A stretch of DNA of 37,362 bases, from the IMG/VR virus record IMGVR_UViG_3300037408_000071, positions 1 to 37,362 of that record. One strand, 5' to 3'. This DNA comes from a virus. Lineage: Duplodnaviria > Caudoviricetes. Positions 2 through 35,949 of this stretch are shown here, in pieces; within the stretch, counting starts at the first letter, position 1, and each line of letters starts with the position of its first letter. The notes below the pieces were generated by a model. That model worked only from the letters and a program-made list of their open reading frames with translations, was not told where the DNA came from and searched no databases. The position numbers and the translations under genes are program-made.

Positions 2-3000
2 GACCGGGGCCAGCGCACGGGCGACGAGCGCCGCCTTGGCATCGGCCTCCGTTTCATAGGTGCCCGCCTCGTACCAGTGCTGGGCGCCTTCGTCGCGGAT
101 CTTCGCCTTGAACTTGCCGGTCGCCTCGTCCTTGGTGATGTCCCATTCGCCAGGCTGCCACTTGAAGGCAAGATCCCCATTCTCGTTGCGCTGCACCTGC
201 GGCACGCCCATGAAATCGGCGACGCGCGGGGATCGCTGGGCGACGACGTTGACCGGGCGGCCCGTGGCGATCTTCGGGACCGGGAAGCGACGGCCCTGCG
301 CCTCCTCCTGTCCCTTCAAGTCCTCGAGCGTGATGGTGTCGGCGAACGAGTTGTAGAGCGCCATGAGCGCCGGCAGGTTGGCGAACTTGGAGAAGCGGTT
401 GCTCTGCCGGTAGCCAACGCCCGAGGGCTTCACCTCGTAGACGTGCTCGACTTCGCCGAACTGCGCCGCCCACGCATCGAACACATGCAGATCGAGCCCC
501 TTGAGGGTCTGGTACTGCATGTACCGCTGCATGGTGTACATCTCGACCAGGGAGTTGCTGACCGGGGTGCCGGTCGCCGTCACGAGCAGCGCCTTCGGCC
601 CGAGAGTATCGGTGAGCCAGCGCAGTTTCACGAACAGATCGAACGCCTTGGCCGAGCCTGCGGGGTTGCCCATGCCGGCCGTGCGGTCCATGCGCGAGTT
701 GTAAAACAGGTTCTTGAACTCGTGCATTTCATCGATGAACACGCCGTCGATGCCGAGTTCGTCAAAGGACAGCACGTTGTCGCGGGTGCCGCGCGCGTTG
801 GCGCGCTCCTGCATCTTGGCCTGCAAGTTCTTCTTGATCCGCTCCATGTCGCGCAGGATGTGGCGGTCGCCGCGTTCGGTTTTCAGTTGCTCGATGGCGT
901 TGGAGATTTCCTCGATCTGCTCCTCGAATATCGCCTGCTCGGTGGCATCCGGCAGCGGGATCTTCTTGAGGGAGGAGTGGCCGACGACGACCGCATCCCA
1001 GTCGCCCGTGGCGATCTTGGAAAAAAACCTCTCGCGGTTGCCCTTGGAGAAGTCGTCCGGTTCGGCGACGAGAATGTATGCGCTCGGGTAGAGCTTGTAG
1101 AACTCCTGCCGCCATTGCAGCGTCAGGTGGTTCGGAACGACGAACAGGGGCTTGCGCGCGATACCTAAGCGCCGGGCCTCCATGGCAAGTGTTGCCATCT
1201 GGAACGTCTTGCCGGCGCCGACGACGTGATCGTAGAGCACCTGACGCGCTTGCAGTCCGCGCCACACACCGTTCTTCTGGTGCGCGAGCAGGGTCACGGC
1301 GGGGCTCATGCCGGGGAAGGTCATGTGCGAGCCGTCGAACTTGCGCGGCACGATGCGGTTCAACTTTTCGTTGTAGAGACGGGCAACTTCGGCCGCCCGC
1401 TCCGGGTCGCCCCACAGCCATGCCTTCCACTCGGCCTTCATCGCCGACTGCTTCTCGCGCGCGAGTTCGGTCTCGCGCTCCTTGACGAAGGTCGTGGTCG
1501 ATCCGTCGGAGTGGCGGACGGTTTCCTTCACGACGACACCGCGCCCGCTCATCGAGTGGTCGAATATCTCGACGGCCGTCATTTCGCGGATGCCGTACTT
1601 GCCCTCGTTAAGCGACGGGTCGGCATAGCCGGTCTGGTCGATGAACCACTGGCCGGCGCCGTAGCGGATCGTGAAGTCGCGCCCGCTGACGTGCTTGCCG
1701 AACGCCTCGTAGATCGCTGGCGGGAGGAAGTTCGCGCCCAACTGCACGCTGATTTCGCTCGGCCCCTTGTCGCGCGGGATGACTTTCGTCAGTGCTTCGG
1801 CGTTGCGCTGGTAGGCCGGGTCGCCCTTGGCGGCCGCCTCGGCTTCGGTGAGCTTGGTCTTCACGTCTCCGGACAGGTACTCGTCGGCCGTGACGAGCCC
1901 GGCCTGCGGATCGCGGAAGATCGTATCGCCCAACTCGGCCTCGATTTCCTCGGCCGACTTTTCGGGGAAGACGCGCGCCATGTACTCAAGATCGACCGCG
2001 CCCTTGTAGTTGAGGCTCGCGAGGAGCGCATCCTGGGCCGAGGCGACCTTGATGTTGTCGGACGGCGGAAAGAGCACGCGCCGTTGCAGGATGTCGGCTT
2101 TCTTGGCGCTCGGGTCGCGCGCATCGATGCCGTCCCGCTCGGCGATGGCCTTGGAAATGCCGCGGTCAAAGTCGAACTCGAGCGCGAGCAGAAGCGGCGC
2201 CTCGGTGTCGTGGATGAACACGCGCCGGTTGGTGGGCGAGTTGAGGTGTCCGTTCTTTTTGAGGAACGCATCGTAGCGGCCGTTCAGACGCTTGCGGTTC
2301 TCCTCGATCTGCGTCTCGGTCGCATCGGCCGATCGCTCGAGGCGAATTTGGCTGCGCAGCAGGTCGCGCAATTCAATCATGCCTTTCATGCGCTCGGCAG
2401 CCCGCGCGTTCGGCGGGTTCCAGACTTCGGCCGTGCGCTCGCCCAAATGGCCGGTGCCGCGCTGGCGCACGTTGCCCTGTCCATCCACGAAGAACGAGCC
2501 GACCTTGAGGCCGTCGGGCACTTCGTAGTTGGCCGCGCTCATTTCCTCTGTGCGGTTGATCGGCGTATAGACGGCCGGGAGCGCCTTGGCCCACTCTTTC
2601 AGTTTCCCCTGCCAGCCTTCGACCGGCTCGACCGTGTACTCGCCCGCGCGGTACATGGTGCCGCCCGCGCTCGGCGTGCCGAGCACGTTGGTGGGGTTCT
2701 CCACGAAGTAGGGGTTGACCCACGCTTTCGCCGTCTCGCCCGTCTTCGGGTCCGTCACGGACTGCTCGACCGGCGTCACCCAGGACGGCTTGCGCGGGGC
2801 TGCACCGTCGCGCCGCTGGAACACGAGGATGTCGGTGACGACTTCGGTCCCGGCGTTCTCCTTGAACGCGGTGTTTGGCAGGCGTACGGCGCTTACGAGG
2901 TCCGCCCGGTCGGCGATCCACTGCCGCGCAGTCTCGTTCTTCGCGTCCATGAAGCTGTGCGAGACGACCATCGTCAGCAGGCCGCCGGGCCGCAGCTTGT

Positions 3001-6000
3001 CGATACTCTTGGCAAAGAAGTAGTTGTGGATCGAGAAGCCGCTGTAGGGCGAGCGCGCATCGTCCACGATCGCCTCGCTGCCAAAGGGCGGGTTGCCGAT
3101 CGCAAGGTCGAAGTAGCCGCTCGGGATGTCGAACGCCTCGAAGCCGGATTGCTTGACCTTCGCGCTCGGGTAGAGCGCCGCGGCAATCTTCGCCGTCAAC
3201 GAGTCGAGTTCGACGCCGTGCAACTGCGAGTTGGTCCGCATTGACGGCGGCATGAGGCCGAAGAAGTTGCCGACGCCAACCGACGGCTCGAGCACCCGGC
3301 CCCGCTTGAAGCCCAACGCATCGAGCGCCGAGAACATCGCCTCGACCACGGTCTTCGAGGTGTAGTGCGCGTTCAAAATCGACGCGCGCGCGGCCTTCCA
3401 CTCGGCCTCCGTCAGCAGCCCCTTGAGTTCGGCGTGCTGCTTTGCCCAAGTCTTGTTGTTGGGGTCGAACACGCCCTTGAGCGCGCCCCAACCGACGTAC
3501 TTGGCAATCGCGGCCCGTTCTTCGGGCGTGGCGATGCGCTGTTCCGCCTCCATCGCGCGCAGGATGCGGATGGCCGCGATGTTGTCGCGGTACTTCTGCG
3601 TGAGGGAACCCTTGCCGAGGTCGGTATCGGCGAGGGAGTGGTCGGTCAGCCCAGCGTCGGTGGGGCCGGACTCAGGCCGTACAGTTCCGCTATCTCGTGG
3701 CGCGCGAGGTGATCGTTCCCCGGCTGGCTGTACACGTCCAGTTCCTGCTTCTCCTGCTCCCGCAGTGTCTCCAGGTACGCCCCGTCCTCGATCAGGGACG
3801 CGACCGACTTCGGCCAGCCCAGCATCCACCTGTTCGCGATCTCCGTCGCGAGCGGCGTCATCAACCGGAGTTGCTCTCGGATCTCCGGCGGGTAGCTGTT
3901 CGGTTTCAGTAGCGTTTGCATCTGCGTCTCCATTCTGCGCCGGACTTGGCTCCGCGTCCACCGCGGGCGCCTCGGACAGCAGCGCGTCAACATTCAGTGC
4001 AGCCAGTTCGCCGACCGGGGTCATTTCCGAGGCAAAGGCCTCGGCACGCGGGTCGAAAGCGAGTGCCGCGTACCATGACTTCAAGTAGGGTTTCACAATG
4101 TCGCCGAGGTCGCCGACCATCGCTTTGGCGTAGGCGGCAAAGGTCCGTGCGCCCTTCTCGACGTGGTAGCCAGCCAGTGTGATGCCGGCCTGCACCAGTT
4201 CCGGATCAAGCCCGGCATTTGCCTGGCCGAGCTTGGCCCGCAGGATCGCTCGAGCCTTTTCGGCGGCGTCCTCAGTGAAGATCGTATTGGGTGACGGAGT
4301 CGGTGCCTCGGCTGAGGTTTCGTCGGGGACTGGCGCCGCAATGTTGGCGCGGTCCCACCCTTGGAGCCATTTCTTTGCCGCTGGGCCTTTGGTCCAGTCT
4401 GGCGGCACTCGCGGCTTCCCTTCCTGGAACGCTGACCATCCGGCCGCCTCCGGCCCTGTCGCCCCCAGCGGGTCTTTCGCCTTCGGCGCCTCATCCTTCG
4501 GCTTGTTCCTCGCCGCCCATTCCTCGGGCGTCCAAGCGCGTCCGTTGTAGGTGATGTGCGCGACGATCGCCCCGGTGGAATCCTTGACCTCGAGGTTACT
4601 GCCAATCTCGCTCGCGCCCGCGGCGCTACGATCGCGGAACTCAGCCCACTTGGCTTGCGCATCTTCGACGCTGGCTACCGCATGCCGCCGCCCGTTCCAT
4701 TCGACGTACAGCGATCGGGCGGGCGGGGTTACTTCCTCGGCAGCATTGGCGGTTTCGGTTTCCGCGATTGCTTGCGTTGGTTTCGCGGTTGTAGGCGTCT
4801 GCGCTGGCTTCTTGTGGTCGCCGCTGGCCAGCCATTCCTTGAACTGCTCGGGCGTGAACTTGGCGATGCCGAGAAGGTTGTTCTCCATCTTCCGGCCGAG
4901 CTTGCCGCTAAACGACTCGCGATACGCCTTGCGTGCCGCGTCGATGTCAGCGTAACCCATGAAGGTCTTGTGCTCGTCAAACTTGCCGGAACCGGCATCA
5001 GCTTGGTTGAACACGAAGATCGGGCGCGAGGTGTCGTCGGGCGCATCGCCCAGCGTCACGTCGATGTGGTCTTTGTCCTTGCCGACCGTGCCCTTGATGT
5101 ACCCGTAGTGGCCGGGCATGACCGTGGACCACGGCTTGCCGTCCTTGCTGACGCCTTTGCGCTCGCTGCCCTTGGGGTTCTCGATGCTGATGTCGAGGCC
5201 CTGAACGCGGACCCTTCCGACCTTGTAATTCCCCGCTTCTTTCTGAGCTTGCGTCGGTTCTGGTCGATCATTCAGAGGGGATGTAGCTGCTTCATGGGCC
5301 GCCGCATCAATCCCTGTCGTAATACTCGCTCGAGGGGCGCCCCCCTGCGAATCCGCTCCCGAAGCGTCCGCACTCTGATTCCCAGGTGGCGAGCCCACTC
5401 CGGCACGGCCATCGTTACCCCGTTGTGCGTCAGGAATTTCGAGTCCCGACGATAAGGGAGTCGGCCCAGCGTCGCCGCTCGCTCCGGGTCGAGTCCCTGC
5501 CGTAACACCCGTTGTCGGAATGTCATCGGCGGCACTCCCGCCAGTCTCGCCGCCTCCTGTACGGTCATCCGCTGACCACGAAACTCCACGATCCGGCAAA
5601 ACCTCCGGTTCGCCGCTTGCTGCTGCGCGGTCGCCCACCGGCAATTCGCCGGCTCGTAGTGGCCGTTCGGGTCGATTCTGTCCAGCGACATCAGCGGCGC
5701 CGGACGCGGTCCCATATCTGTCAGGAAGTGGGCGAAGCTCTCCGTCCACCGCCGGCAGACCTTGATCCCTCTGCCCCCGTACTCCGCGTATATCCGCAGA
5801 TTTTGATCCCGGCACCGACGGATCATCCACCGATACGTTCGGTACTCGGCCGGGAACTTCCGCGTTAGGCCTGTTCGCTTGTTCATGTCCCTTATTGTAA
5901 CGGCTGCCGCCTTGCTCGGCATCCTCCAAAAGAGGCGCCGCCTCCTGCGCTGGTCCGTTGGTAGCAGCGACAGGAGACGGCGCCAAGGGGGGGGCGGTCG

Positions 6001-7954
6001 CCGGAGCGGGTTCGGGGGCGGCCGGGCCGCCGTCGAGCACGGGGCCGAGCACTTCCTCGGCCGGAATCGGGCCCTCGGGGCTCGTCGGGCCAGCCGGACG
6101 CGGACCACCGCCTGCCGGGGGCGGTGTCGGGCCGCCAGCCGGGGGCGGCGTAGCGGGTCCGGTCTGCGGGTTCGTGGGTGCCGGCGAAACGGTCGGCTGG
6201 CCGCGCAGGTTGGCCGCTGCCTGGCGCGCGCGCTCGGCATGGGCTGCGAGTGCGCCGGAGCCAGCGCCCGGAGTAGCGCCTCCTATTGCGCCCAGGACGG
6301 CGTTCGGGAAGCTGCCCGCCATGACGTCGCGCTCGGTGCCGGCGCCGACGTTGATGCCCTGTTCGGTCGCAATGCCTTCGCCGGTTTCCTGCAGGCCTTC
6401 CTCGATGGCGCTCGCCGTGCCGCGCAGCGCCATGTTACCGACGTAGGATCCGCCGACGAGGCCCGCGCCCAGGCGAACCGCTGGCGAGAGGATCGCGCCC
6501 GTGGCGGCGCCGCCGGCCGCCGAGACGGGCAGGGTGATGCGGAAGGCCCACTTGGCAGCCTCGGCCGCCGTCATCGCCTTGGCCTGCTCATGCCCGAGGC
6601 GTTCGCGCAGCTGGCGATAGTAGGACGACTCCTTGGCGAGCTCGGCCTCGTCCATGCCCTCGATCGTCTCGCGGGCCTGCTGCGCCGCTGCACCGCCGCC
6701 CTGCGCGCCACCGAGGCCGCCGGCGACCGCCACCTGGCCGGCAACCGGCAGGTTCTTGGTCAGCGCGACGCTGGCAATGATCGGCGCGAACTGGCCGAGG
6801 ATGACGGCGCCGTGCTGGATGTAGCCGCCCAGCGACGGATCCTGACCCATCGACCACGTCGCCGGGTCGCTGACGTCGCCCTCGGGCGTGGACTGCTGCT
6901 GCGCCATCTGGCTCGCGAGGCTGCGGCTGTCGAGCACGCCCTGGCTGTAGCCCTCGATGGCGTTTGCTGCCCCATCGAGCGGGTTGATCGGGGTGATTTC
7001 GGGGCCGCCCAGGGCGGCAATGCCAGCGGCGATCGGCTGCGCGCCCTCGCGCATCATTTCGCCCGCGCCGCGGACGGTCATGCCGACGCCCTGAATCGCG
7101 CCGCCGGCGATCGCCCGGCCTGCATCGCCGATGCGGCGCGCGAGGCTCGGGTTTGTGTCCTGATCGAACAGCTTGCGGGCCGCGGCCTGCTGGTCGGCGG
7201 GGATGCGCGGCGCGACCTCGTCCTGCCAGTACCGCTCGCGGATCTGCTCGCGGGTGTCGCTGTCGGCCTTGAGCCAGGCCTCATGCTGCACGACCTGATC
7301 CCACGTCATCGCCGGGCCGCCTGGCTCCGCGGTCTGCTGCGCCCGTTCCTCGACTACGGCTTTCTCGAGATCGACCGACGGCGCGGCGCGGCTCGCGTTG
7401 CGCTGCTGCTCGAGGTACTGCCACGGCGACATTGCGCCGCTCGGGGCCGTCGCGCGTGCCGGGCCCGTGACGCCCATGCGGGAAACGACCTCGTCGCCAT
7501 ACTGGCCGACGGTCGGCGCGCTCGGGTTGCGCGGGTCGCGACGGGATTCCTTACCGATCGCGCCGGGGCCGCCGTAGTAGCCCTGCGCGATCTTGCGCGG
7601 GTCGCCGCCGGTCTTCTCGGCCAGCATTTCGATGTAGGCGACGCCGGCCTCGGTGTTGTGCTCGGGGTTGTCCCAGCGATAGTTGGCCGGGATGCGCCCC
7701 TCACGCTGCATCTGCGCGAACGTCGTGTCTTTGACCTGCATGGGGCCGCGGACGTCGGACGAGTTCGGCTGCGACGTATCGGCAGCGCCGTAGCTGGATT
7801 CCTGCCCGTAGATCGAACGGGCCACGCCTGCCAGTCGCGTCGAGCCGCGGCGCTGCAGGATTCGATCGAGCGTATCGCCCGTTGTCGGCCCTTCGCCGCC
7901 CTGGTCGTTGTTGATGCCGCGCGAACGAAGGTACTCAGCGACCGTTTGGGCCAT
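2..7954 (-). CDS. Giant DarB-like polyvalent internal virion protein, >2650 aa, 3'-truncated by window edge (lytic transglycosylase, InPase-like domain, N6-adenine DNA methyltransferase, SNF2-type helicase)
   Basis: ATG at 7954 (MAQTVAEYLRSRG). The ORF track has no closed ORF in this frame below 7954, and I checked 5222-5940 by hand for stops (none). Motifs: GQESSYG...GPMQV (SLT, ~7470-7830); PTQAQKEAGNYK...HYGYIKGT.GKDKDHIDV (InPase-like, ~4810-5310); VLEPSVGVGNF (~3260-3295) and IGNPPF (~3083-3100) of an N6-MTase; DHVVGAGKT Walker A (~1205-1231); FIDEMH (~722-740); TGTPVSNS. Confidence 0.93.
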   Translation of the reverse strand, partial: MAQTVAEYLRSRGINNDQGGEGPTTGDTLDRILQRRGSTRLAGVARSIYGQESSYGAADTSQPNSSDVRGPMQVKDTTFAQMQREGRIPANYRWDNPEHNTEAGVAYIEMLAEKTGGDPRKIAQGYYGGPGAIGKESRRDPRNPSAPTVGQYGDEVVSRMGVTGPARATAPSGAMSPWQYLEQQRNASRAAPSVDLEKAVVEERAQQTAEPGGPAMTWDQVVQHEAWLKADSDTREQIRERYWQDEVAPRIPADQQAAARKLFDQDTNPSLARRIGDAGRAIAGGAIQGVGMTVRGAGEMMREGAQPIAAGIAALGGPEITPINPLDGAANAIEGYSQGVLDSRSLASQMAQQQSTPEGDVSDPATWSMGQDPSLGGYIQHGAVILGQFAPIIASVALTKNLPVAGQVAVAGGLGGAQGGGAAAQQARETIEGMDEAELAKESSYYRQLRERLGHEQAKAMTAAEAAKWAFRITLPVSAAGGAATGAILSPAVRLGAGLVGGSYVGNMALRGTASAIEEGLQETGEGIATEQGINVGAGTERDVMAGSFPNAVLGAIGGATPGAGSGALAAHAERARQAAANLRGQPTVSPAPTNPQTGPATPPPAGGPTPPPAGGGPRPAGPTSPEGPIPAEEVLGPVLDGGPAAPEPAPATAPPLAPSPVAATNGPAQEAAPLLEDAEQGGSRYNKGHEQANRPNAEVPGRVPNVSVDDPSVPGSKSADIRGVRGQRDQGLPAVDGELRPLPDRYGTASGAADVAGQNRPERPLRAGELPVGDRAAASGEPEVLPDRGVSWSADDRTGGGETGGSAADDIPTTGVTAGTRPGASGDAGPTPLSSGLEIPDAQRGNDGRAGVGSPPGNQSADASGADSQGGAPRASITTGIDAAAHEAATSPLNDRPEPTQAQKEAGNYKVGRVRVQGLDISIENPKGSERKGVSKDGKPWSTVMPGHYGYIKGTVGKDKDHIDVTLGDAPDDTSRPIFVFNQADAGSGKFDEHKTFMGYADIDAARKAYRESFSGKLGRKMENNLLGIAKFTPEQFKEWLASGDHKKPAQTPTTAKPTQAIAETETANAAEEVTPPARSLYVEWNGRRHAVASVEDAQAKWAEFRDRSAAGASEIGSNLEVKDSTGAIVAHITYNGRAWTPEEWAARNKPKDEAPKAKDPLGATGPEAAGWSAFQEGKPRVPPDWTKGPAAKKWLQGWDRANIAAPVPDETSAEAPTPSPNTIFTEDAAEKARAILRAKLGQANAGLDPELVQAGITLAGYHVEKGARTFAAYAKAMVGDLGDIVKPYLKSWYAALAFDPRAEAFASEMTPVGELAALNVDALLSEAPAVDAEPSPAQNGDADANATETEQLPAGDPRATPVDDAARDGDREQVDAGLAEVGRVPDRGRGVPGDTAGAGEAGTGRVQPAGERSPRAPRDSGTVRPESGPTDAGLTDHSLADTDLGKGSLTQKYRDNIAAIRILRAMEAEQRIATPEERAAIAKYVGWGALKGVFDPNNKTWAKQHAELKGLLTEAEWKAARASILNAHYTSKTVVEAMFSALDALGFKRGRVLEPSVGVGNFFGLMPPSMRTNSQLHGVELDSLTAKIAAALYPSAKVKQSGFEAFDIPSGYFDLAIGNPPFGSEAIVDDARSPYSGFSIHNYFFAKSIDKLRPGGLLTMVVSHSFMDAKNETARQWIADRADLVSAVRLPNTAFKENAGTEVVTDILVFQRRDGAAPRKPSWVTPVEQSVTDPKTGETAKAWVNPYFVENPTNVLGTPSAGGTMYRAGEYTVEPVEGWQGKLKEWAKALPAVYTPINRTEEMSAANYEVPDGLKVGSFFVDGQGNVRQRGTGHLGERTAEVWNPPNARAAERMKGMIELRDLLRSQIRLERSADATETQIEENRKRLNGRYDAFLKKNGHLNSPTNRRVFIHDTEAPLLLALEFDFDRGISKAIAERDGIDARDPSAKKADILQRRVLFPPSDNIKVASAQDALLASLNYKGAVDLEYMARVFPEKSAEEIEAELGDTIFRDPQAGLVTADEYLSGDVKTKLTEAEAAAKGDPAYQRNAEALTKVIPRDKGPSEISVQLGANFLPPAIYEAFGKHVSGRDFTIRYGAGQWFIDQTGYADPSLNEGKYGIREMTAVEIFDHSMSGRGVVVKETVRHSDGSTTTFVKERETELAREKQSAMKAEWKAWLWGDPERAAEVARLYNEKLNRIVPRKFDGSHMTFPGMSPAVTLLAHQKNGVWRGLQARQVLYDHVVGAGKTFQMATLAMEARRLGIARKPLFVVPNHLTLQWRQEFYKLYPSAYILVAEPDDFSKGNRERFFSKIATGDWDAVVVGHSSLKKIPLPDATEQAIFEEQIEEISNAIEQLKTERGDRHILRDMERIKKNLQAKMQERANARGTRDNVLSFDELGIDGVFIDEMHEFKNLFYNSRMDRTAGMGNPAGSAKAFDLFVKLRWLTDTLGPKALLVTATGTPVSNSLVEMYTMQRYMQYQTLKGLDLHVFDAWAAQFGEVEHVYEVKPSGVGYRQSNRFSKFANLPALMALYNSFADTITLEDLKGQEEAQGRRFPVPKIATGRPVNVVAQRSPRVADFMGVPQVQRNENGDLAFKWQPGEWDITKDEATGKFKAKIRDEGAQHWYEAGTYETEADAKAALVARALAPV
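3646..3921 (-). CDS. Small hypothetical protein (91 aa) nested in the +1 frame of the giant ORF
   Basis: GGAG upstream of ATG 3921. Product MQTLLKPNSYPPEIREQLRLMTPLATEIANRWMLGWPKSVASLIEDGAYLETLREQE... looks globular and helical, while the overlapping giant frame is a G/D/R/P/A-rich linker. Confidence 0.75.
   Translation of the reverse strand: MQTLLKPNSYPPEIREQLRLMTPLATEIANRWMLGWPKSVASLIEDGAYLETLREQEKQELDVYSQPGNDHLARHEIAELYGLSPAPPTLG
5272..5886 (-). mobile_element. HNH-type homing endonuclease gene (204 aa) nested in the +1 frame of the giant ORF
   Basis: Family motifs YGGRGIKVCRRW..F..F..DMGPRP...SLDRIDPNGHYEPANCRWAT..QQ..NRR, followed by two HTH-like repeats (MTVQEAARLAGV..., MAVPEWARHLGI...). 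Lower GC than flanks. ATG at 5886. Confidence 0.9.
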
Positions 7955-12243: not shown

Positions 12244-12786
12244 TTAAATCTTCGCTCGTCGTAGACCGCCACCAAGCCGCCGATTGAGCGACGCCGGCAG
12301 GATGCGCAGGTTTGATGGGTGATGAAGGCCGCCGTGCGCCAGCGGAACAATATGATCTACGTCATGCGGAACGCCCGTTGCATCGGTTAGCCGCCTCGCC
12401 TCTATGTAAATAGCCCGAATCTCGACCCGAAGCTCTCTACCAAGCATCGCCGCCTGACCGCGCGTTCTTAGCTGACGCAATCTTGTATGGTGGAGAGAAA
12501 TTGCTCTGGCGCGTTGAGTCTTTCTGGATCGCCGCCTCAGTTCTTTCCCGCGCGGCGATGAGTCGTAGGCAGCGCGAGCGGCGCGGGCCTTCTCGCTGGC
12601 GTTGTACTCCCGCATGTACTCCCGTAGAGAATCTGCCCGCTCCTGAGTTCTGAGGGCGCGCTTTTTCCCTACACAGGCCTTGCAATAAATACGATGCCCG
12701 TCAGGCTCATACTTGTCGCGACCAAACTCGTTCATGGTCTTTTCTACTCGGCAGCAGGAGCAGCGTTTGCTATGAATACTGGGCAT
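12244..12786 (-). mobile_element. Free-standing HNH endonuclease with N-terminal Cys-rich zinc motif
   Basis: KRCSCC...YCKAC and HDVDHIVPLAHGGLHHPSNLRILPASLN; lower GC; start (ATG 12786 or 12798) overlaps the end of the tail fibre gene. Confidence 0.88.
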
Positions 12787-13579
12787 AGAAATCGCCATCG
12801 TTCCCGCCGGTTGGCGGGGCCGTGCCGCGCGTGATGTTTGGCGCACCGTTGCTCGAGGTCACGACGTTCAGACTGCCGCGCGACAGGCTGCCGGTGATGT
12901 TGCCGCCGCTGAGCGGCAGGTAGCTGTGCGTGTGGCTGGTGACTGAGTAGTTGGCCGGGTTGAAGTTTCCGCTATGCCAGACACCGCTGCCGCTGACGGT
13001 CAGGCTGGTGAAAGCGCCAGACGTCCCGGCCAGGGCGCCAGTCAGGGTGCCGCCGGTCAGCGGCAGGAAGCTGTGCGAATGGCCAGCGGTCGCGTACTTG
13101 GCCGACAGCGCCGTGCCGGCCTCGTAGAAGTTCGTCGCGTACACGCCCGCATAGCGCAGGCCATCGCTGCCGATGTTCGATGCGTTGTTGACCGTCGGCA
13201 GGACGCTCAAGGTGTTCAGCTGGCCCGCCATCGTGCCGCCAGCCAGCGGCAGGTAGTTCGCAGGCGTCAGGTTGCCGGCGTGCCAGACGGCGTTTCCGCC
13301 GACCGTCAGGCTAGAAAATGCGCCGGCGGCGCCGGTCAGCGTACCCGTCAGCGTGCCGCCAGCCAGCGGCAGGAAGCCGAGCGAGAGCACGCCCCAGGCC
13401 GAGCCGTTCCACTTTTCGAAGCGGCTGTTGGCCGCCGAATAGCGGATCGCGTCGGTCGGCGTGCCGGTGAGGGTTTCGCCGTCGAACAGCTTGGCCTGGG
13501 CGGCCATGTAGTCGCGGATATAGGCGAGGACGTCCGCGCGAAGATCCGAAGTGACTGGCTTGGTGAAATTGGCGCTCAT
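12770..13579 (-). CDS. Tail fibre protein (269 aa)
   Basis: Four LPL.GG...G repeats, a duplicated VWH.GN..PANY block, HSH/HTH motifs, C-terminal PTGGNDGDFY motif. Confidence 0.8.
   Translation of the reverse strand: MSANFTKPVTSDLRADVLAYIRDYMAAQAKLFDGETLTGTPTDAIRYSAANSRFEKWNGSAWGVLSLGFLPLAGGTLTGTLTGAAGAFSSLTVGGNAVWHAGNLTPANYLPLAGGTMAGQLNTLSVLPTVNNASNIGSDGLRYAGVYATNFYEAGTALSAKYATAGHSHSFLPLTGGTLTGALAGTSGAFTSLTVSGSGVWHSGNFNPANYSVTSHTHSYLPLSGGNITGSLSRGSLNVVTSSNGAPNITRGTAPPTGGNDGDFYAQYS
12947..13375 (-). repeat. Internal 41-codon duplication in the tail fibre (13253-13375 and 12947-13069)
   Basis: FLPLAGGTLTGTLTGAAGAFSSLTVGGNAVWHAGNLTPANY vs FLPLTGGTLTGALAGTSGAFTSLTVSGSGVWHSGNFNPANY. Confidence 0.85.
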
Positions 13580-13582
13580 GAG

Positions 13583-14041
13583 CTACTCCTTAGCCCGCGC
13601 GCGCCAATATGCTGCGCTGGCTTCATCGACCGTCGAATACAAACCAAGATGCCGGCCAAACCGCGCAGCTCGGAACTTGCCAGTCCTTCGGTGAAGCGAA
13701 ACTCCGAGTGCCCCACTTGTGTTCGCCCTGCCGAGTCTTCGCTTATTCGCGAGGTTCTGCTGCTGAGTCACGCTGCGTAGGTTACCCAATCGGTTATTTG
13801 TTCTATCGCCGTCGATGTGGTCGATTTGATTTGGCTCGGTGCCGTAGATCATCAGCCAAATGGCTCGATGCAGCAAAAACCTCGTTCCACGAACGCTGCC
13901 GATGATGTAGCCATGATTGCCGATTGTTGAAAGCGGCTGTCCGGCGCGCGGCTTAGCTGGTCCGCGTGAAATGCGGCGGAACACAAGCCCGGTGTCGGGC
14001 TCATAGCGAAACTCAGCGAGCAGCGTTTTTCTATCGACCAT
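13583..14041 (-). mobile_element. Free-standing HNH endonuclease (HNH_3 type with short AP2-like tail)
   Basis: HRAIWLMIYG...IDHIDGDRTNNRLGNLR...NTSGALGV...HLGLYSTVDEASAAY; TGATG overlap with the upstream gene. Confidence 0.9.
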
Positions 14042-16107
14042 CACACACCCCTTGCGGTCCAGCTAAACGAGCAGCTGACGCGCGTACCCGACAGGTTGAA
14101 GCAAAGCACCTTGAACTCGGTCGGGTAGGGCGCGTCGGTAAAGTCCACGACCGCGATTATTGGCGTGGTCCCGACTGGTTGGATCATCGGCGGGCCGAAC
14201 AGATCCACGAAATCGTAGTTGAGGGCGACGGTCGTTCCGCCCGAGTCGGCCGAGTTCGCGTAGCCCTGGCCGGAGTCGGTTCGCTGCTTGACCGATACCT
14301 GCACATTGATGTTCGTGCAGCGGTACAGGCCGACGCCGCTGCCGCTGGTTGTCGCCGTCACGCGCACCTTGAGGTAGCGGAAGCTCGCGGCAATGAACCC
14401 GCTCGGGCCGGCGGCGATGTCGGTCCAGCTGTCGCCGATGTTCAGCTTGTGGCTGATCTGCACCTGATTGGTCGGCGTACCCGCGACGACGGCCAGCGTC
14501 GGCGTCACCGTGACGGTCGTGGACGGGATCGCGGCGCCGAGGTCGATTTCCTTCTCGATGTAGCCGGTGGTCGGTGCGGGCTGCGCATAGATCGGAAACC
14601 CGGCGGCGATCGCGTCGTCGTCGTTCGTCCAGCTGCGCGTCGAGTAGTGCGCGTCGTAGGTTTCCGTGGTGTTGATCGGCAGCACGACGCCCGTGCCGTC
14701 GTAGCTCGCGCTCGACAGGGTTGCCGTCGAAAGGTCGATGTTCTGGTCGCTGTAGAGGACGAAGTCGGGCGGTTGCTGCACGCTGACCGTGACCGGGGCG
14801 GCCGTGCCGTAATTGCCCGCCGTGTCGCGGCCCCGCACCCAGTAGGTGTAGCTGCCCGAGGCCATTTCAAAGACCGACGTGAACAGGCCTGACTTCTCGC
14901 CGACGGATACCGCGCTGCCGAAGTCCGCGCCTTTGCGGATGTCGTAGGTGGCGATCGGCAGGGTGCCGGTGGCGGGCTCCTGCCAGTACAGCAGCACGTT
15001 GTTGTCGATGACGTCGGCGCGCAGCCCTTGCACGGAGCCCGGCGCGGTGATCGTGACATCGACGGCGATCGGCGTGCCGTAGTTGCCGGCAACGTCGCGG
15101 CCCGCCACCCAAAAGCGCCGCACGCCGCCCCAGTCCACGCGCATCAGCAGCGCCGTTGCGAAGGTGCGGTTGACGAGCGTGCCGCCGGCCCAGGTGTCGC
15201 CGTAGCGGACCTCGTAGTATTCGATGAGGAACGAGCCCGCGACCGCGCTCCACGCGAGCAGGATCGAGTCGCCGCTGAGCGTGAAGCTGAGCGTCGCCGT
15301 CGTCGGGTTCACGATGATGACGTCGATCGAGCTCGCCGAGCCCGAGTAGAAACCGCTGATGTCGCGCGCCCGCACCCATATCCGGTACGTCCCGGTGGAC
15401 TGCACGCGCCACAGGTAGAAGGTGCTTTTGGTTTCGGCGAGCAGGGCGCCCGTCTCCCAGGAAGCACCGTAGCGGACCTCGTACACGTCGAGGTCGGGCG
15501 CTGTCACCGCGTTCCAGAAGACGCGCACGCCGGCTTCCTCGAGGACGTAGTTGAGCCCGGTGACGTCGCCTGGCTGGCTCTCCGAGCTCGTCCCGCTGAT
15601 CGCGTTGAACGCGCCCGTGATCCCGGCCCGGCTGACGAAGCGGATCCAGTAGAAGACTGCGCCTGTCAGGTAGCCGTCTTCCCATAGGGTGATGCTGCCG
15701 ACGACGGCGCCCACTAGCCGCGCCTCGGTCAGGTTGTCGGTGCTCGAGCGCCAGATTTCCGTCGCGTAGTGGTTCGCGTACTCCGGCGCGGTCCACGTCA
15801 GCCGCATGTTGTACGGCAGCCGCGTGACCACGAAACCAATCGGCGCCGGCGGCGGGATCTTGGAGTACGCGCCCTCGTCGGTGCCGGGCAGCACGAACTG
15901 ATCGCGCCCGGCCGGCGCGAGGATCGCGAACCCCTGGTCAATCAGCGCGCGGTAGGTGACGGCGGAATCGAGCTTGGCCTCGTCGGTCAGCGCCCGCTCG
16001 CCGGTCATCAGGCCCAACGCTTCCTGCACCGAGCGGGCCCATCGCGTCAGCCCGTTGCTCGATGTGTCAGTCAGATCGGGCAGCGTGGAGCGGCGAGTCT
16101 TTGCCAT
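14041..16107 (-). CDS. Tail protein with tandem FN3/Ig-like repeats (host-specificity type, ~688 aa)
   Basis: Repeated units W....YEVR.G..W...YWVR.RD.AGNY; TGATG overlap with the nozzle gene. Confidence 0.8.
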   Translation of the reverse strand: MAKTRRSTLPDLTDTSSNGLTRWARSVQEALGLMTGERALTDEAKLDSAVTYRALIDQGFAILAPAGRDQFVLPGTDEGAYSKIPPPAPIGFVVTRLPYNMRLTWTAPEYANHYATEIWRSSTDNLTEARLVGAVVGSITLWEDGYLTGAVFYWIRFVSRAGITGAFNAISGTSSESQPGDVTGLNYVLEEAGVRVFWNAVTAPDLDVYEVRYGASWETGALLAETKSTFYLWRVQSTGTYRIWVRARDISGFYSGSASSIDVIIVNPTTATLSFTLSGDSILLAWSAVAGSFLIEYYEVRYGDTWAGGTLVNRTFATALLMRVDWGGVRRFWVAGRDVAGNYGTPIAVDVTITAPGSVQGLRADVIDNNVLLYWQEPATGTLPIATYDIRKGADFGSAVSVGEKSGLFTSVFEMASGSYTYWVRGRDTAGNYGTAAPVTVSVQQPPDFVLYSDQNIDLSTATLSSASYDGTGVVLPINTTETYDAHYSTRSWTNDDDAIAAGFPIYAQPAPTTGYIEKEIDLGAAIPSTTVTVTPTLAVVAGTPTNQVQISHKLNIGDSWTDIAAGPSGFIAASFRYLKVRVTATTSGSGVGLYRCTNINVQVSVKQRTDSGQGYANSADSGGTTVALNYDFVDLFGPPMIQPVGTTPIIAVVDFTDAPYPTEFKVLCFNLSGTRVSCSFSWTARGV

Positions 16108-21184: not shown

Positions 21185-21805
21185 TCAGTCTCCAAAGTTG
21201 ATGTTTGGAGCACTCTTGCGCTCAGTTGGTGATCGCCGCGCGTTTTGGTTCCCGCGCTGCGATGAACTCATTTTCGCCTTGGTGGCCGGCGACGCTTTCC
21301 GCCCCGCCATGAGCGCCGCCTGCGCCGCGCGCCATTCCAGGCTATGACCTTTCCCCTTGTTCGACTCACTAATCTTGGCGCGGGTTTCTGCGCTGACGAC
21401 GCGGCCCGTGCGTGCTTTCGCGGACGCCGACATCTTCGCGCGCGCTTCGGCCGATGGAACCCGGCCGCGGTTCTTGGCGCCGATCCTTTCCCTAGACTCG
21501 TCGCTCAGTTCGCCACGTTGCCCGCCGGCCGTGCGATTAAGGATGCCTAAGCCACGACTGGATGCCCTGCTGATCCAGTAACGCTCACCAGCGTCGCAAG
21601 CGTCACGATTCTCAAATTCTTCGAGGACCATGCAATCAGGCTGAAGTCCGGCGCCTCGCAACTCCCGAATCCATTGGTCGCGCGGCGTGTCGAAATGGGT
21701 GCAGTTGCGAACGTGCTTTTTGACGCGCGCGCCTACGTCCTGCGTCATTCCGATGTATCGGAGATCGCAAGCACGGGGGTCGAGCAGCGCGTACACGGCA
21801 AACAT
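21185..21805 (-). mobile_element. GIY-YIG homing endonuclease with NUMOD3-like repeats (206 aa)
   Basis: AVYALLDPR...RYIGMT....R...H, E.YWI, LN.T.GG, then repeats SAEARAKMS, SAETRAKIS, SPATKAKMS; GGAG RBS; stops 2 nt before the capsid ATG. Confidence 0.9.
21190..21223 (-). promoter_or_regulatory. Two overlapping hairpins in the capsid leader
   Basis: GAGCGC-AAGA-GTGCTC (21223-21208) overlaps CTCCAAA-7nt-TTTGGAG (21210-21190), which pairs the GGAG RBS. Confidence 0.55.
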
Positions 21806-21841
21806 CGGCACTCCACTTCGCCCTTTCGGGCTACGGTGGCA

Positions 21842-21871
21842 ACTCTGCCGCAATCAAAATCGGTTGGAGCG
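21842..21871 (-). promoter_or_regulatory. Putative phage late promoter, copy C
   Basis: CGCTCCAACCG-N13-CAGAGT, intergenic, upstream of the GIY-YIG and capsid genes. Confidence 0.7.
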
Positions 21872-23023: not shown

Positions 23024-25219
23024 TCACGCCGCATCGTCTATCGAGTCGATCATTTCGATCAACCGCACCATGTCGATCATCCGCTTGCGCTCAGCCTGGC
23101 GGGCCTCGCGGCGCTCCCAGTAGTCGCGCACCCGCGTCAAGAGCTCGTCGCCGTCGTCCAGCTTGCCGCCGCCGCCGTGATACTCAGGCGGCAGATCGCC
23201 CGTTTCGCCCACGACGGACAGGGCCGCGTCGGCTACCGCCCCGGCGATCGCGTCGCCGTCGAGCGTGAAGGACAGCACCGTAAGCTCGCCGCCGGCCAGC
23301 GTTGCAGCGATCGCGGCGCCCGAGAGCAGTTTGCTAATGTTGACCGTGGCCGAGGCATTGCCGCTGCCGATCGCCGCGCCCGACAAACGAACCGCGAGGC
23401 TCAGCGTGCCGGACGCCGAGGCCGAGCCGGCTGCAGTACCCTCTAGATCGACCTGGCCGGTGAGTGTGAGCGCGCCGGACGCCATGGCACCCGCCAGCGC
23501 GGCACCGTTGAGCGCAACGGCGAGCAGGATTTGCCCGCCGGCCGCGGCCCCGGCAATCGCGGCGCCCGCGAGGTTCACCGATACGCTCAAGTCGCCGGCC
23601 GCGACCGCGCCGCCGCTGGCAACTCCCGCAATCAGCTTTGCCAGCGCGAGCTCGGCCGCGGCCTGCGCACTTGCCTCGGCGTCACCCGCGATCGGCTTGG
23701 CAATCGACAGGTCAGCCGCGCCCGCCGCTTGGCCGAGTGCAGAGCCGAGCAGGCTGCTTGGCGGCAGATAGAACTCGCCGTCGATTACACCCGTTTCGAG
23801 GCCTGCCGATGCTGTTGCGCCAGCAACCGCAGCGCCCTGCAGCACGACGGCGACATTCAGCGCGCCGCTGGCGCTGGCCGAGGCAACCGCAGCACCGTCG
23901 AGGTCAACGGTCCCGACGATGTCGAGCGAGGCCTGTGCCGTCGCGCCGGCGACCGCCTGGCCGGCAAGCGCGACTTGGATGTTCAGCTGGCCGCTTGCCG
24001 CAGATCCGCTAATCGCAGCGCCACTCAGCGTCAGGACGACCGTGATCGGGGCGGACGCCTGAGCCGAGGCGATCGCCGCGCCGCTCAACGGCACCGACAG
24101 CGAGAGGTTTGCCGAGGCCGCCGAGCTCGCATTGGCGAGTCCAGCGAGCAGCTTTGAGACGACGAGCGCGGCCGAGGCCTGGCCGCCGGCAACCGCGGCG
24201 CCCGAGAGCAGGGTGCCGGTATCCAGCGCGCCAGACGCCAGCGCGGCAGCAAGCGCGCTGCCGGAGAGGTTGACGTTGAGGTTCAGCGCCGCCGAGGCGG
24301 ATCCGCCGCCGATCGCGCTGCCCTCAAGGTTCGCGACGCCAGCCGTTGAAAGGTCGGCCGATGCCAATGCCTGCGCGACTGCCGCGCCGCTCAGACTGAC
24401 CGCCAGCGTCAGCGCACCGTTGGCCGTGGCCCCAGCGAGCGCGGCGCCGGCAAGCCCCTTACTGACTGCGATTGCCCCGCTGGCGCTGGCCGCCGATACC
24501 GCGGCACCCGTCAGCGTGACCGTGTGAGAAATCGCGCCAGAGGCCGTCGCGCCTGCCTGTGCGGCCCCGGCGATCGGCTTAGTGATGGACAGCGCACCGC
24601 TCGCAGCGGCCCCGGCGATGGCTGCCCCGGCGATCGGCTTGCCGAGCGTGATCCCGGCCGAGGCCAATGCGCCCGCGATTGCCTGACCGGCAAGCGGCTT
24701 GGCGACCGTCAGGGCGCCGGATGCCTGCGCGGAAGCCGCTGCGGCTCCCGTGAGCAGCTTCACGACTGAGGCGGCCCCCGATGCCTGTGCAGAGGCGGCC
24801 GCGGCTCCTGCCAGCACCTTCGCAACCGCCAGCGCAGCGTCGGCTTGCGCCGAGGTCAGGGCGGCGCCCTCGAGCTCCTGCGCCGTGCCGCCGGCAGTTG
24901 CCGTCAGATCGCCGGATGCCGTGGCCCCGGCCGTCGCGGATCCGGCGAGTAGGTGGTACTCGGTGGTCTGGTTACGCGGCTGCCAGGACTCGGCGCTGCC
25001 CGTCAGCCGCGGGAACCATGCGTGAACCGGACCGCCAGCTGTCAGATCGCCAGATGCGGCGGCAGCGCCAATCGCGTCGCCGGCCAGCGGTTTCGTGACG
25101 TTGATTGCACCGCTCGCCGTAGCGCCAGCCGTCGCGGCGCCCTCAAGCGCCTGCGGTGACCCGCTTTCAAGCGTGATCCCAAACCCTGAGCCGCTATTTG
25201 CAACGACCGTGAAGGCCAT
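23024..25219 (-). CDS. Ala/Gly/Ser-rich repeat protein (731 aa), putative virion fibre/filament
   Basis: More than 20 imperfect ~26-aa repeats L.GAA.A.A.ASG.L; charged C-terminal helix after GGGG. Confidence 0.8.
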   Translation of the reverse strand: MAFTVVANSGSGFGITLESGSPQALEGAATAGATASGAINVTKPLAGDAIGAAAASGDLTAGGPVHAWFPRLTGSAESWQPRNQTTEYHLLAGSATAGATASGDLTATAGGTAQELEGAALTSAQADAALAVAKVLAGAAAASAQASGAASVVKLLTGAAAASAQASGALTVAKPLAGQAIAGALASAGITLGKPIAGAAIAGAAASGALSITKPIAGAAQAGATASGAISHTVTLTGAAVSAASASGAIAVSKGLAGAALAGATANGALTLAVSLSGAAVAQALASADLSTAGVANLEGSAIGGGSASAALNLNVNLSGSALAAALASGALDTGTLLSGAAVAGGQASAALVVSKLLAGLANASSAASANLSLSVPLSGAAIASAQASAPITVVLTLSGAAISGSAASGQLNIQVALAGQAVAGATAQASLDIVGTVDLDGAAVASASASGALNVAVVLQGAAVAGATASAGLETGVIDGEFYLPPSSLLGSALGQAAGAADLSIAKPIAGDAEASAQAAAELALAKLIAGVASGGAVAAGDLSVSVNLAGAAIAGAAAGGQILLAVALNGAALAGAMASGALTLTGQVDLEGTAAGSASASGTLSLAVRLSGAAIGSGNASATVNISKLLSGAAIAATLAGGELTVLSFTLDGDAIAGAVADAALSVVGETGDLPPEYHGGGGKLDDGDELLTRVRDYWERREARQAERKRMIDMVRLIEMIDSIDDAA

Positions 25220-25231
25220 TCTCGCGACTCC

Positions 25232-27121
25232 TTACGGGCTACCGCTGGCGAGCGTCGGCGCGGAGCGCCCTACATTGGTACCGTCATCCGCGCTGACGAA
25301 TAATTCCTCGGTGTTGTCGAACCAAGTGAAGGAAAAGGCCCCGTCTCCGCTTCGGGAAGTAGCAAGCACCTTCTCGCCGGATCCAGCGCGGTGCAGCGCG
25401 AGATTCACGGTGCCCGTAAACCCGCTGATGGAGTCGGCGGCCGTGAACGTGATCGTGTGGTAAGTGAGCAGCATGGACAGCGAGTTCCAGCCGGCCACAG
25501 CGAAGTTGAACACTCGCCAGCGCCGCGCTGTCTCGATGTCCATGCGGTCCGCGTCGGTGTCGCCGGGCCAGCGTTTGAACAGCAGTCGCATCTGCGCAAA
25601 CGCAAAATATGCGCCAATCTCGGCGTCGCTCGACACCTGATCCTGATAGACCACTTCCCAGGTAACGCCGCCCTCTGCCGCCAGCCGCTCGACTTGCACG
25701 ATGAACCCGGCTGGAACCGTGCTGGAAAGGTGGGCAAGACGAATGCCGATGGCCGTTATGTAGTAATTGGCCTCGGGAATGGTCGGAGCCAATGCGGAAA
25801 TCGCCTGCCATGTCGCCGCCGCCGCCGTGCCGTTCTGCGTGATGCCCCACTCGACGGTGTGGTTGTGCGCGCCGCTGCCCTGCGACGATTTCCCGCTGGT
25901 GTAGTTGATTAGCCAGAAACCAGAGCAATTCCAGCCGAAGTCGGCCGTATCGGTTCGGTAGGCGTCGAAGTTGAGCGAATTGCGGCCTCGCGCCAGCGTG
26001 AAGGCCGAATCGTTGCGGATCATCGCCGCATTGGTGCCGCACAGCACCGAGGCCGTGTCGGTGTACGCGACAAACGAGCCCGTGCCGATCCGCATGTTGA
26101 GGCCGCCGATCGCCGCCGCCTGCGTCCAGAACGGGAAAAACGCGATGCGCTGCCCGGTGATCGTGCCAGGTTCCTGAATGAACAGTTCTCGCGTGCCGCG
26201 CTGGTAGTCGCTCGAGGTCGTGCCGCCCATCGGCGAATCGACAGCGAGCGGCAGCATCACAGAGTTCATGATGCTGGTCGAGGTCGATTCATTGTACTCG
26301 TAGGTGACGACGAGGTAGGCCTGCGCGTGGTTGCAGCGGGCAATGGTCGCCGTCGGCTGCCAGTTTTGCGTCGCGGCTGTGCTGGGCCATGCGCTCGTCA
26401 GTTCCCATACATATCGGAAAAACCGATCCGAGGCGAGGGCGCCCTCGTAGTTGCCCGTCGTGACGGTAGCCGTGCCGACGCGCAGAGTCATCGTGTGGTC
26501 GGTGGTCGCGGCGTTGCGCGCCTCATTGCCCTGCAAAACCACATGGATGTTGCGGTAGACCTTGCTGGCCTCCGGCAGGTAGGTGTCGAGCGCCGGAATC
26601 GTGTCCCGCGTTGTCGCCGACGTGTCCATCGCTCCCGTCGGCATATTCAGCGGGATCATCACCGTCTTGACTTGCGTCGTGCTGGTGTCGTCGTACTCGT
26701 AGGTGATGTCGAGGGTCACGCAGACATTGACCATGCCCAGCGTCGTGCCGGTCGATTGGTTGATCTGCAACTGGAAGTCGCAGGTCATCGAAGTGCCGGA
26801 CCAGTTCGTATTGAAGTGCGCGGTGTAGTCCTGCGCCAAATACAGCGACAGGTTCTCGCCCGAGTTGGTCAGCGTGTTGCCATTCGCGACGCTGGTATAA
26901 CCTGCGGCTCCCAACCGCAGGTTCAGGGTCTTGGTCGTCACGGTGCCGCCCGTGGCGGTGATGATGTCATCCATCGTCACCGTCGCGACGACGCTGCGGA
27001 AGGTCTTGGTGCCCGTCTCTGGCAGGTAGATCGTGATCTGCGTGAGATTCGTGAGCGCGTTGTTCGTCAGCGACGCCAGCGCCGGAAAGGCGTACTTGAC
27101 GGTTTTCAGCCGGGTCGCCAC
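25232..27121 (-). CDS. Thr-rich beta-sandwich-type hypothetical structural protein (629 aa)
   Basis: AAGGAG RBS with GTG start; internally repeated motif TYEY..STT....VM.PL. Confidence 0.8.
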   Translation of the reverse strand: MATRLKTVKYAFPALASLTNNALTNLTQITIYLPETGTKTFRSVVATVTMDDIITATGGTVTTKTLNLRLGAAGYTSVANGNTLTNSGENLSLYLAQDYTAHFNTNWSGTSMTCDFQLQINQSTGTTLGMVNVCVTLDITYEYDDTSTTQVKTVMIPLNMPTGAMDTSATTRDTIPALDTYLPEASKVYRNIHVVLQGNEARNAATTDHTMTLRVGTATVTTGNYEGALASDRFFRYVWELTSAWPSTAATQNWQPTATIARCNHAQAYLVVTYEYNESTSTSIMNSVMLPLAVDSPMGGTTSSDYQRGTRELFIQEPGTITGQRIAFFPFWTQAAAIGGLNMRIGTGSFVAYTDTASVLCGTNAAMIRNDSAFTLARGRNSLNFDAYRTDTADFGWNCSGFWLINYTSGKSSQGSGAHNHTVEWGITQNGTAAAATWQAISALAPTIPEANYYITAIGIRLAHLSSTVPAGFIVQVERLAAEGGVTWEVVYQDQVSSDAEIGAYFAFAQMRLLFKRWPGDTDADRMDIETARRWRVFNFAVAGWNSLSMLLTYHTITFTAADSISGFTGTVNLALHRAGSGEKVLATSRSGDGAFSFTWFDNTEELFVSADDGTNVGRSAPTLASGSP

Positions 27122-27148
27122 GGGTTACTCCTTCCTGGCCGCGTCAGG

Positions 27149-27922
27149 TCACGCGCACTTCGCCACGATGACCGCGTCAGCCGGCAGCTTGGCGCCCTTC
27201 TTGCTGAGCGCAACAGACTCGCGCGGGATCGCGTACCAGTCGGCTTTCTTGCGGGCGTCCTTTACGATCGCTCCGCACGGCAGGCCGAGCGCGACCGTGC
27301 CGACTTGCTGCTGCAGGCCGTTGCGCCACAGCCGCGCTGTCGTGGCGACCGTGACGACCGGGGCCGTCGGCTTGGTGTTGATCGTGACTGCCGCGCTGCT
27401 CGAGGCGCTGGCGAGCGTCACTACCTTGGTCGGCTTGGCGCTCATGTCGGAGTCGATGCCCTGGGCGTTGCTCGCCTTGACGCCGAAATGCCATGTTCCG
27501 GCCGCGAGGCCAGTCACCATGTAGGCCCTGACCGTCGCAGCAACCGGAATCGGCGTGGCCGCGTCTACGCCGGCCGCGCTGGTGGCCGCGTACACCTTGA
27601 AACCGGCCAGGTCGGTAAACGGTGAGCCGTCGGTGTTGGTCGTCGGTGCCGTCCAAGACAGCTGCGCGCTGCCGCTGCCCTCGCTGCACGTCAGCGTGTA
27701 GGTCGCCGAGGCGCGAACGTCGGTCAGGGTTTGCGTGCCGCTGATCGCCTTGGTGCCCGACCAGCCGCCGGACGCCGCGCAGGACGAGGCGCCCGTCGAT
27801 GACCAGGTGAGCGTGACCGAGGCCGGACTGATCGCCTGGCTCGGCGTTGCGGTGATCGTGACAGTCGGAACTGCATGCGTTGAGAACGCGAGCAGCAGAA
27901 GGGCCAGCAATGAATAGCGCAT
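27149..27922 (-). CDS. Signal-peptide-bearing Ig/FN3-domain protein (257 aa)
   Basis: MRYSLLALLLLAFSTHA signal-like start; LSWTAPTTNTDGS..TDLAGFKVY...GL.AGTWHF.VKA.N..G..S FN3 signature. Confidence 0.8.
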   Translation of the reverse strand: MRYSLLALLLLAFSTHAVPTVTITATPSQAISPASVTLTWSSTGASSCAASGGWSGTKAISGTQTLTDVRASATYTLTCSEGSGSAQLSWTAPTTNTDGSPFTDLAGFKVYAATSAAGVDAATPIPVAATVRAYMVTGLAAGTWHFGVKASNAQGIDSDMSAKPTKVVTLASASSSAAVTINTKPTAPVVTVATTARLWRNGLQQQVGTVALGLPCGAIVKDARKKADWYAIPRESVALSKKGAKLPADAVIVAKCA

Positions 27923-27926
27923 GATT

Positions 27927-35308: not shown

Positions 35309-35521
35309 CTAGAGTGGGACTTCGTTGAACGTGGCCGAGATCGAGTAGGCGTCCGGCACTTCGGCCGCGAGACGGCTGCGGGCCTCGGCCTCGCGCAGCA
35401 CGTCGTAGGCCCGCTGGTGCGGATCGGGGTCGCCGGGCAGCCGGTAGACGAGCATCCAGCGCGGCCGGGTCGGGTAAGGCGTCGAGTTATGGGCGTGCGG
35501 AACGCCGTGGGGATTCGTCAT
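35309..35521 (-). CDS. Hypothetical protein (70 aa)
   Basis: AGGAGG RBS; ATGA overlap with the HNH stop. Confidence 0.6.
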   Translation of the reverse strand: MTNPHGVPHAHNSTPYPTRPRWMLVYRLPGDPDPHQRAYDVLREAEARSRLAAEVPDAYSISATFNEVPL

Positions 35522-35949
35522 GCGACCCTCCTTGCCGCTTCAGCGGCTTCCTCGATCGTGCGGAACGTGCCGAGGTAACGGTGAAAGCGCCTCGCCTGCC
35601 ATCCATTGCCGTTACGGCTGACGCCCACGGCACCGGATTCGCCCAGCGGACGGCGATTCGATAGGTTGATGCGACGATTCGCGAGCCGCAGGTTGCTTGG
35701 GCGGTTGTTCTGCGTGTTCCGGTCGATGTGATCGAGTTCGCTGGCGGGCCATTCGTCATGAGTCATGAGCCAAATCAGCCGGTGGACGAGCACCTGGCGG
35801 CCATCGACTGAGGTACGCAGGTAGCCGCGCCCGTTGTCGCAGCCCACAGGCTCGCCGGCCTTCACGCCGCCCTTACGGTTCACGCGCCATCGCAAAATAC
35901 CGGCAGCATCGAGCGCGAAAAGCTCGCGAGCCCTTTCCAGAGTCACCAT
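35518..35949 (-). mobile_element. Free-standing HNH endonuclease (HNH_3 type with short AP2-like tail, 143 aa)
   Basis: HRLIWLM....WP...LDHIDRNTQNNRPSNLR...SGAVGV...YLGTFRTIEEAAEA; TAATG overlap with the terminase stop. Confidence 0.9.

Follow-up and report, generated by a model that had tools for sequence, protein, structure and literature searches.

The window analysed here is the whole 37,362-base contig of a tailed phage, in which the genes for terminase, portal and major capsid protein are on the minus strand, followed by a giant open reading frame (ORF) (Table 1). The methylase region of this giant shares 66% identity with that of Pseudomonas phage 8P, and 39-48% with records that carry the name DarB-like antirestriction protein. 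With an adenine methylase and an SNF2-like helicase joined in one giant gene among the late genes, the product belongs to the DarB-like polyvalent proteins. The SLT/InPase/methylase/SNF2 architecture of such virion-borne proteins is described in the available portion of PMC5512222, and the DarB-like homolog of JC1 is given as virion-associated in that of PMC9144972.

Table 1. Coordinates of the giant gene and of the genes nested in it (window positions, except where residues are given)
Feature	Position	Strand	Remarks
Host gene, DarB-like polyvalent giant	2..7954	-	SLT, InPase, adenine methylase, SNF2-like helicase; gene cut by contig end
Domains of the giant, by residue	SLT 46-141; InPase 902-1042; adenine methylase ~1448-1800; SNF2-like helicase from ~2235	-	Pfam
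Methylase region of the giant	2555..3613	-	residue ~1448 onward
Nested +1-frame gene	3921-3646	-	91 aa + TGA; predicted five-helix acidic protein, putatively remote TnpV-like
Shine-Dalgarno GGAG	3931-3928	-	6 nt ahead of nested ATG
Second nested +1 gene, HNH endonuclease with HTH repeats (204 aa)	5272..5886	-	phrog_3377, E 3e-53

The smaller of the two nested genes overlies a low-complexity stretch of the giant (residues ~1345-1436) in the +1 frame relative to the giant frame 7954-2, and its stop codon falls ~30 nt ahead of the conserved methylase region. The first-pass annotation had pointed to a 91-codon +1 ORF with a GGAG ribosome-binding site just before the methylase, and this is borne out by the coordinates, by the spacing between the Shine-Dalgarno sequence and the ATG and by the homologs described below; both peptides that it quoted are present in the translation. 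An ORF finder calls the ORF from an upstream ATG at 3993 (115 aa), which has no Shine-Dalgarno sequence, and the methionine at 3921 is where the homologs start. GC3 is 0.87 in the small frame (measured on the 115-codon ORF), and in the giant frame it drops to 0.55 in block 1301-1400 versus 0.82-0.92 in the methylase-helicase, indicating that the nested ORF goes beyond what chance would give. Contigs of runs X1 and X2 cover positions 2800-6400 unbroken and with 0 differences; these contigs may themselves be the source of this DNA. We consider 3921-3646 on the minus strand to be almost certainly a real gene.

The nested HNH gene (5886-5272) has the same frame offset as the 91-codon gene, as had been noted earlier. 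Its ATG follows a TACAAT hexamer at a distance of 7 nt, a spacing like that of leaderless transcripts, and an alternative in-frame ATG is present at 5922. A similar nested HNH gene was found in only one other of 157 loci (L103), where it lies downstream of the InPase domain and not upstream as in the window. It is a lineage-specific insert of a different kind, and resembles the out-of-frame homing inserts of the ShiLan type. Five more homing-endonuclease-like ORFs, all on the minus strand (12244-12846, 13583-14044, 21185-21853, 35518-36006 and 36700-37260), were assigned to the HNH or GIY-YIG type by eye; the phage is rich in such inserts. Among the structural genes, the minus-strand region 23024-31621 encodes a long protein of 731 aa with Ala/Gly-rich repeats and another of 915 aa whose domains look carbohydrate-active; both are likely to be tail or head fibres.

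Homologs of the 91-aa protein are plentiful: 68 were confirmed among 73 candidates, at 47-81% identity, and the profile of the family matches 133 clusters. Nesting at the same offset was seen in 29 of 29 phage and plasmid loci (26/26 viral loci, phage 8P and two plasmids), with the host frame free of stops and the third frame interrupted by 1-9 of them, although the related loci behind these and the following selection counts are not fully independent. When 14 non-redundant loci were kept of the 29 (91 pairs), the amino-acid identity was 50% in the small frame versus 33% in the host frame, which was the lower in 91/91 pairs. The median pN/pS, uncorrected and taken from 66 pairs of 12 phage loci, was 0.59 for the small frame, 1.35 for the host frame and 0.98 for the third frame. 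The small-frame protein sequence is under purifying selection, and there is none on the host-frame amino acids over the same bases.

The host frame, for its part, is selectively kept stop-free. A third-position T that would create a host-frame stop occurs at 0 of 273 sites, compared with T at 77 of 651 sites elsewhere (14 loci), a contrast whose joint probability is overstated because the loci are related; for the window alone the open host frame is non-significant (P ~0.4). Since no stop-making T is tolerated while pN/pS is so high, selection on the host frame acts on read-through and not on its amino-acid sequence. The locus therefore has the properties of an embedded out-of-frame gene of the Rz1/Rz type: a whole ORF with its own start and Shine-Dalgarno sequence lies inside another ORF, and both frames are under selection, the small one by its pN/pS and the host one by stop avoidance.

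These results bear on several statements of the first-pass annotation. A lack of homologs, or conservation in the giant frame only, had been set down in advance as the contrary pattern, and neither was seen; homologs exist both nested in DarB-like genes and free-standing. It had further suggested that the apparent linkers of the giant are by-products of hidden genes. The giant-frame text does behave in that way here, as the identities above show, but the statement fails in general, because only two low-complexity stretches hide genes (the 91-codon gene and the HNH gene) and these differ in kind. Even here the giant frame is no mere by-product, since it is selectively free of stops. In five loci (L020, L021, L023, L024 and L042) the nested gene is duplicated in tandem, the second copy being 300-370 nt away and both copies lying +1 in one open giant frame.

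A reverse search, in which the best 80 of 151 viral loci were fetched by their methylase region, avoided choosing loci by the small protein. Of these best 80, 78 carry a +1 nested gene upstream, of the window's or a TnpV-like type; in 73 it lies within 1 kb of the methylase (23 with the window's subfamily and 50 with a different-looking +1 ORF) and in 5 it lies 1.6-3.1 kb upstream, leaving L110 and L134 without a nested-gene match. The count for the second type is partly circular, because its profile was built from 33 of those ORFs. Independently of that profile, 22 of the 33 match Pfam TnpV with E values no higher than 0.5 (best 7e-9), and three far-upstream nested ORFs are clear TnpV (126-149 bits versus the cut-off of 27). 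In the methylase tree, the nine entries that have the window's subfamily group together as a single clade (100/100), and the 91-codon gene is old and co-inherited with the methylase.

Standard gene callers had been expected to drop such an ORF, which is indeed what annotated phage records show. The hidden ORF is unannotated in VvAW1 and PEp14, and weaker-scoring unannotated nested ORFs were found in Bcep22 (~52337-52660, 107 aa, AAGGAGG, E 6e-4), JC1 (E 3e-4) and Gerry (E 0.04). Besides the nested gene, L099, L100, L101 and L124 have another TnpV-like gene immediately after the methylase-helicase. In the PBC5 record (L149:84-6428) the N-terminal half of the giant ends in a TnpV-like domain read in the same frame, with the methylase in another frame; this fusion could reflect a mutation, an error in sequencing or a natural split.

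The 91-aa protein is predicted to form five helices (pLDDT 90) and has a pI of 4.9. Foldseek with this model gave nothing in the PDB (best E 4.6) or BFVD (best E 3.6), and no match was obtained in Pfam, PHROGs or NCBIfam; the ESM Atlas matches are unnamed hypothetical clusters, and a dynein heavy chain profile match (E 0.0075) was dismissed as chance. The window's subfamily is marked by an RWxxGWP and HLAxHE signature, distinct from TnpV. Against PF14198 (TnpV; Pfam gathering cut-off 27 bits) there was no match for the 91-aa protein at E 0.1, for any of 66 alignment members at E 1, or for any of 25 distant relatives, so the window protein is not filed as a TnpV member. The profile of TnpV-matching nested ORFs, on the other hand, gave scores of at least 8 bits to 75 of the 198 family members (top 31.9) versus 0 of 179 reversed sequences (top 4.8); the other direction of the comparison gave 4/33 versus 0/33 reversed. 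The link to a TnpV-like superfamily is thus obtained via intermediate profiles only, and hhalign supports it weakly (probability 9%, E 0.0035). From the profile cross-scores, together with the common position and frame, we assign the window protein to a putative, remote TnpV-like subfamily.

The expression signals agree with a separate start. A Shine-Dalgarno sequence of at least 4 bases precedes 10 of the 14 starts of the window's subfamily, which are fixed by homology, versus 139 of 1717 background ATGs; the corresponding 45 of 51 for all nested starts is inflated, because the second-type ATG was chosen for its best site. Promoter-like sites (p < 0.05) occur in 13 of 51 loci, Bcep22 included, and in the window no promoter of the nested gene's own was found (p 0.25). 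The small frame is open for just 15-18 nt upstream of the ATG in L011, L013 and L016, and a slippery-like motif is absent in 24 of 30 loci, the window among them. We also discarded the idea that translation of a short methylase isoform is coupled to the nested stop, as the host codon there is CTG, CTA, GTA or TTA and never ATG, GTG or TTG (14/14 loci).

Copies outside phages are arranged more variably. Among 35 bacterial-genome loci, 15 have the copy nested in a methylase frame and 2 have it in a long frame but show no methylase in the DNA fetched; at 1 locus it stands ahead of a methylase read in another frame, and at the other 17 the fetched DNA, which for some is a short contig, contains no methylase. 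Several of these 17 adjoin genes for a relaxase, an Rv2179c-like exonuclease, a HAD protein or a phosphoesterase. Free-standing copies in L056, L057, L060, L061, L045 and L063 are clustered with genes for an Rv2179c-like exonuclease, a HAD protein of the RNA-repair type and a phosphoesterase, with a relaxase-type gene directly ahead in L056, L057 and L060. Homologs are also present at nine loci where the host frame has stops.

In seven plasmid or integrated loci without a giant, the methylase frame opens ~80-450 nt upstream of the small gene, so nesting is not merely a product of fusion to virion proteins. Most of these seven frames begin with a QLDLF-like peptide, which the window's giant does not have. 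Peptides of this kind, which we take to resemble the sliding-clamp binding motif, stand at the start of or within the long frame in L028, L029, L046, L047, L050, L052, L055 and L154. In three plasmids (L028, L029 and L154) the RefSeq annotation includes the homolog as a protein and places the start of the methylase downstream of it, so that the N-terminal leader is lost. In the 3907-aa giant of L032:2885-14608 the nested gene and the first helix of the methylase are retained, and the rest of the methylase-helicase is gone; its relative L034 has the methylase. No homolog was found in or near P1 darB or in 5 of 6 sampled plasmid methylase-helicases, meaning that the enzyme family does not always need the small protein.

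Taken together, the explanation we favour, with about an even chance of being right, is that this dual-coding stretch yields a small helical product that serves as a dedicated partner, either a chaperone or an activity damper, of the methylase-helicase. The broader role of chaperone, inhibitor or regulator is one that we infer from context. The small gene would be the older coding frame, and the enzyme would have been extended at its N-terminus by out-of-frame read-through of that gene, thereby creating a disordered tether. This extension would amount to a short leader in several plasmids and integrated elements, and to a virion-protein block of 900-2200 residues in phages. An internal ribosome start on one mRNA would make the small protein alongside the enzyme, and the small protein might then hold the methylase-translocase in a folded or idle state within the producing cell until packaging or transfer, by analogy with the P1 helpers Ulx and DdrB. 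The methylase-less bacterial copies, the retention of the gene in L032 after loss of the enzyme and the lack of a homolog at P1 darB speak against a partner role. A complex prediction with giant residues 1448-2200 gave "no answer" (score 0.00) and bears neither way on the partnership. A more specific proposal, which we offer as speculative and somewhat unlikely, is that a TnpV-like cofactor hidden in the DarB-like methylase-helicases of numerous phages and conjugative elements gates or loads the enzyme, and that enzyme-less mobilisable elements keep copies to borrow or tame a helper's enzyme. If true, it would give TnpV its first real function, and a widespread anti-restriction machine its missing subunit.

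The small gene could also be real and independent of the enzyme, that is, a mobile-element factor (an excision or transfer helper, a regulator or an anti-defence protein) that became nested only through read-through trapping, and this we hold to be possible, though not probable. The same methylase-less copies beside relaxase, exonuclease, HAD and phosphoesterase genes argue for it, as does L032; the promoter-like sites suggest that its timing may differ from that of the late giant gene, and a role of TnpV in Tn4451 excision has been postulated from its likeness to lambda Xis (PMC3158075, available portion). Such independence fits poorly with the occupancy of the methylase-selected loci, which extends across very different phage hosts and Firmicutes-type elements, since a trapped unrelated gene could disappear at no cost to the host frame. 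The all-helical model is not Xis-like either, the fold of Xis being a different one.

The remaining explanations concern how, or whether, the protein is made. That it is the C-terminal domain of a shortened giant, produced by a programmed +1 frameshift and not from its own start, would suit the in-frame fusion in PBC5, but that is a single record, perhaps a mutation or sequencing error; the conserved ATG and Shine-Dalgarno sequence, the short open stretch ahead of the ATG and the general lack of slippery-like motifs make a frameshift improbable. Even less probable is that the gene inserted itself selfishly without breaking the frame, in the manner of the out-of-frame HNH gene in the ShiLan domain; phage methylases offer a precedent for this (PMC11855218, available portion), and the neighbouring HNH gene fits it. 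No nuclease domain was detected in the 91-aa protein, and its near-universal distribution (again, 78 of the best 80 loci) tracks the methylase tree and is not patchy, so that co-inheritance largely refutes this explanation. The least credible is an untranslated shadow ORF, a by-product of the codon usage of the giant. Although the giant gene, being GC-rich, has many +1 ORFs that are 60-190 codons long, a shadow would not explain purifying selection in the small frame with none in the host frame, homologs at nine loci despite host-frame stops, or the protein annotated in three plasmids.

Few conserved genes of bacteria and phages lie wholly within another gene on the same strand. The present one is common to very different phages and elements, yet missing from phage records, and knock-outs and proteomics of Bcep22-like DarB proteins may therefore have overlooked a further product. 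The nested gene connects the orphan TnpV family with the methylase-helicase, and indicates that one growth route of polyvalent giants is reading through a neighbouring gene. Since the small gene can be silenced without altering the giant protein, a clean test is at hand. Embedded genes, TnpV and DarB-like proteins are each already known; for their combination, a gene nested in DarB-like genes, no published account was found in the open full-text literature searched.

In the phage spanin genes, the products of Rz1 and Rz are partners. Rz1 likewise lies complete and out of frame within another gene (PMC9144972, available portion), but the proteins are unrelated to ours, and in the window the host is a giant nucleic-acid enzyme whose overlapping part is a tether without amino-acid constraint. 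The HNH gene of the ShiLan domain is also hidden, with a host-frame reading that is a stop-free disordered loop (PMC11855218, available portion); being a patchy homing nuclease, it differs from the co-inherited 91-codon gene, which has no nuclease domain, and is matched more closely by the window's nested HNH gene. TnpV of Tn4451/Tn4453 and kindred elements is similarly a small helical mobile-element protein, and positional equivalents of the window protein in related giants match PF14198; unlike the nested gene, tnpV is described as free-standing in the portions of the literature available, and it is carried by mobilisable cargoes inserted in streptococcal ICE snf2 genes (PMC9815147, available portion). 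DUF1896 (PF08989) gave neither a profile match nor a profile link to the nested family; it is likewise a small gene directly upstream of methylase-helicases, in Bacteroides, and overlaps the methylase start by 11 nt, but is free-standing. The host protein itself shares its SLT, InPase, methylase and SNF2 architecture with P1 DarB and its Bcep22-like homologs; the available portion of PMC5512222 mentions neither TnpV nor overlaps, and its supplements might list such small genes. P1 uses helpers to load DarB (PMC9024508, available portion), and, in contrast to the gene nested in the window, its Ulx and DdrB are encoded by separate genes.
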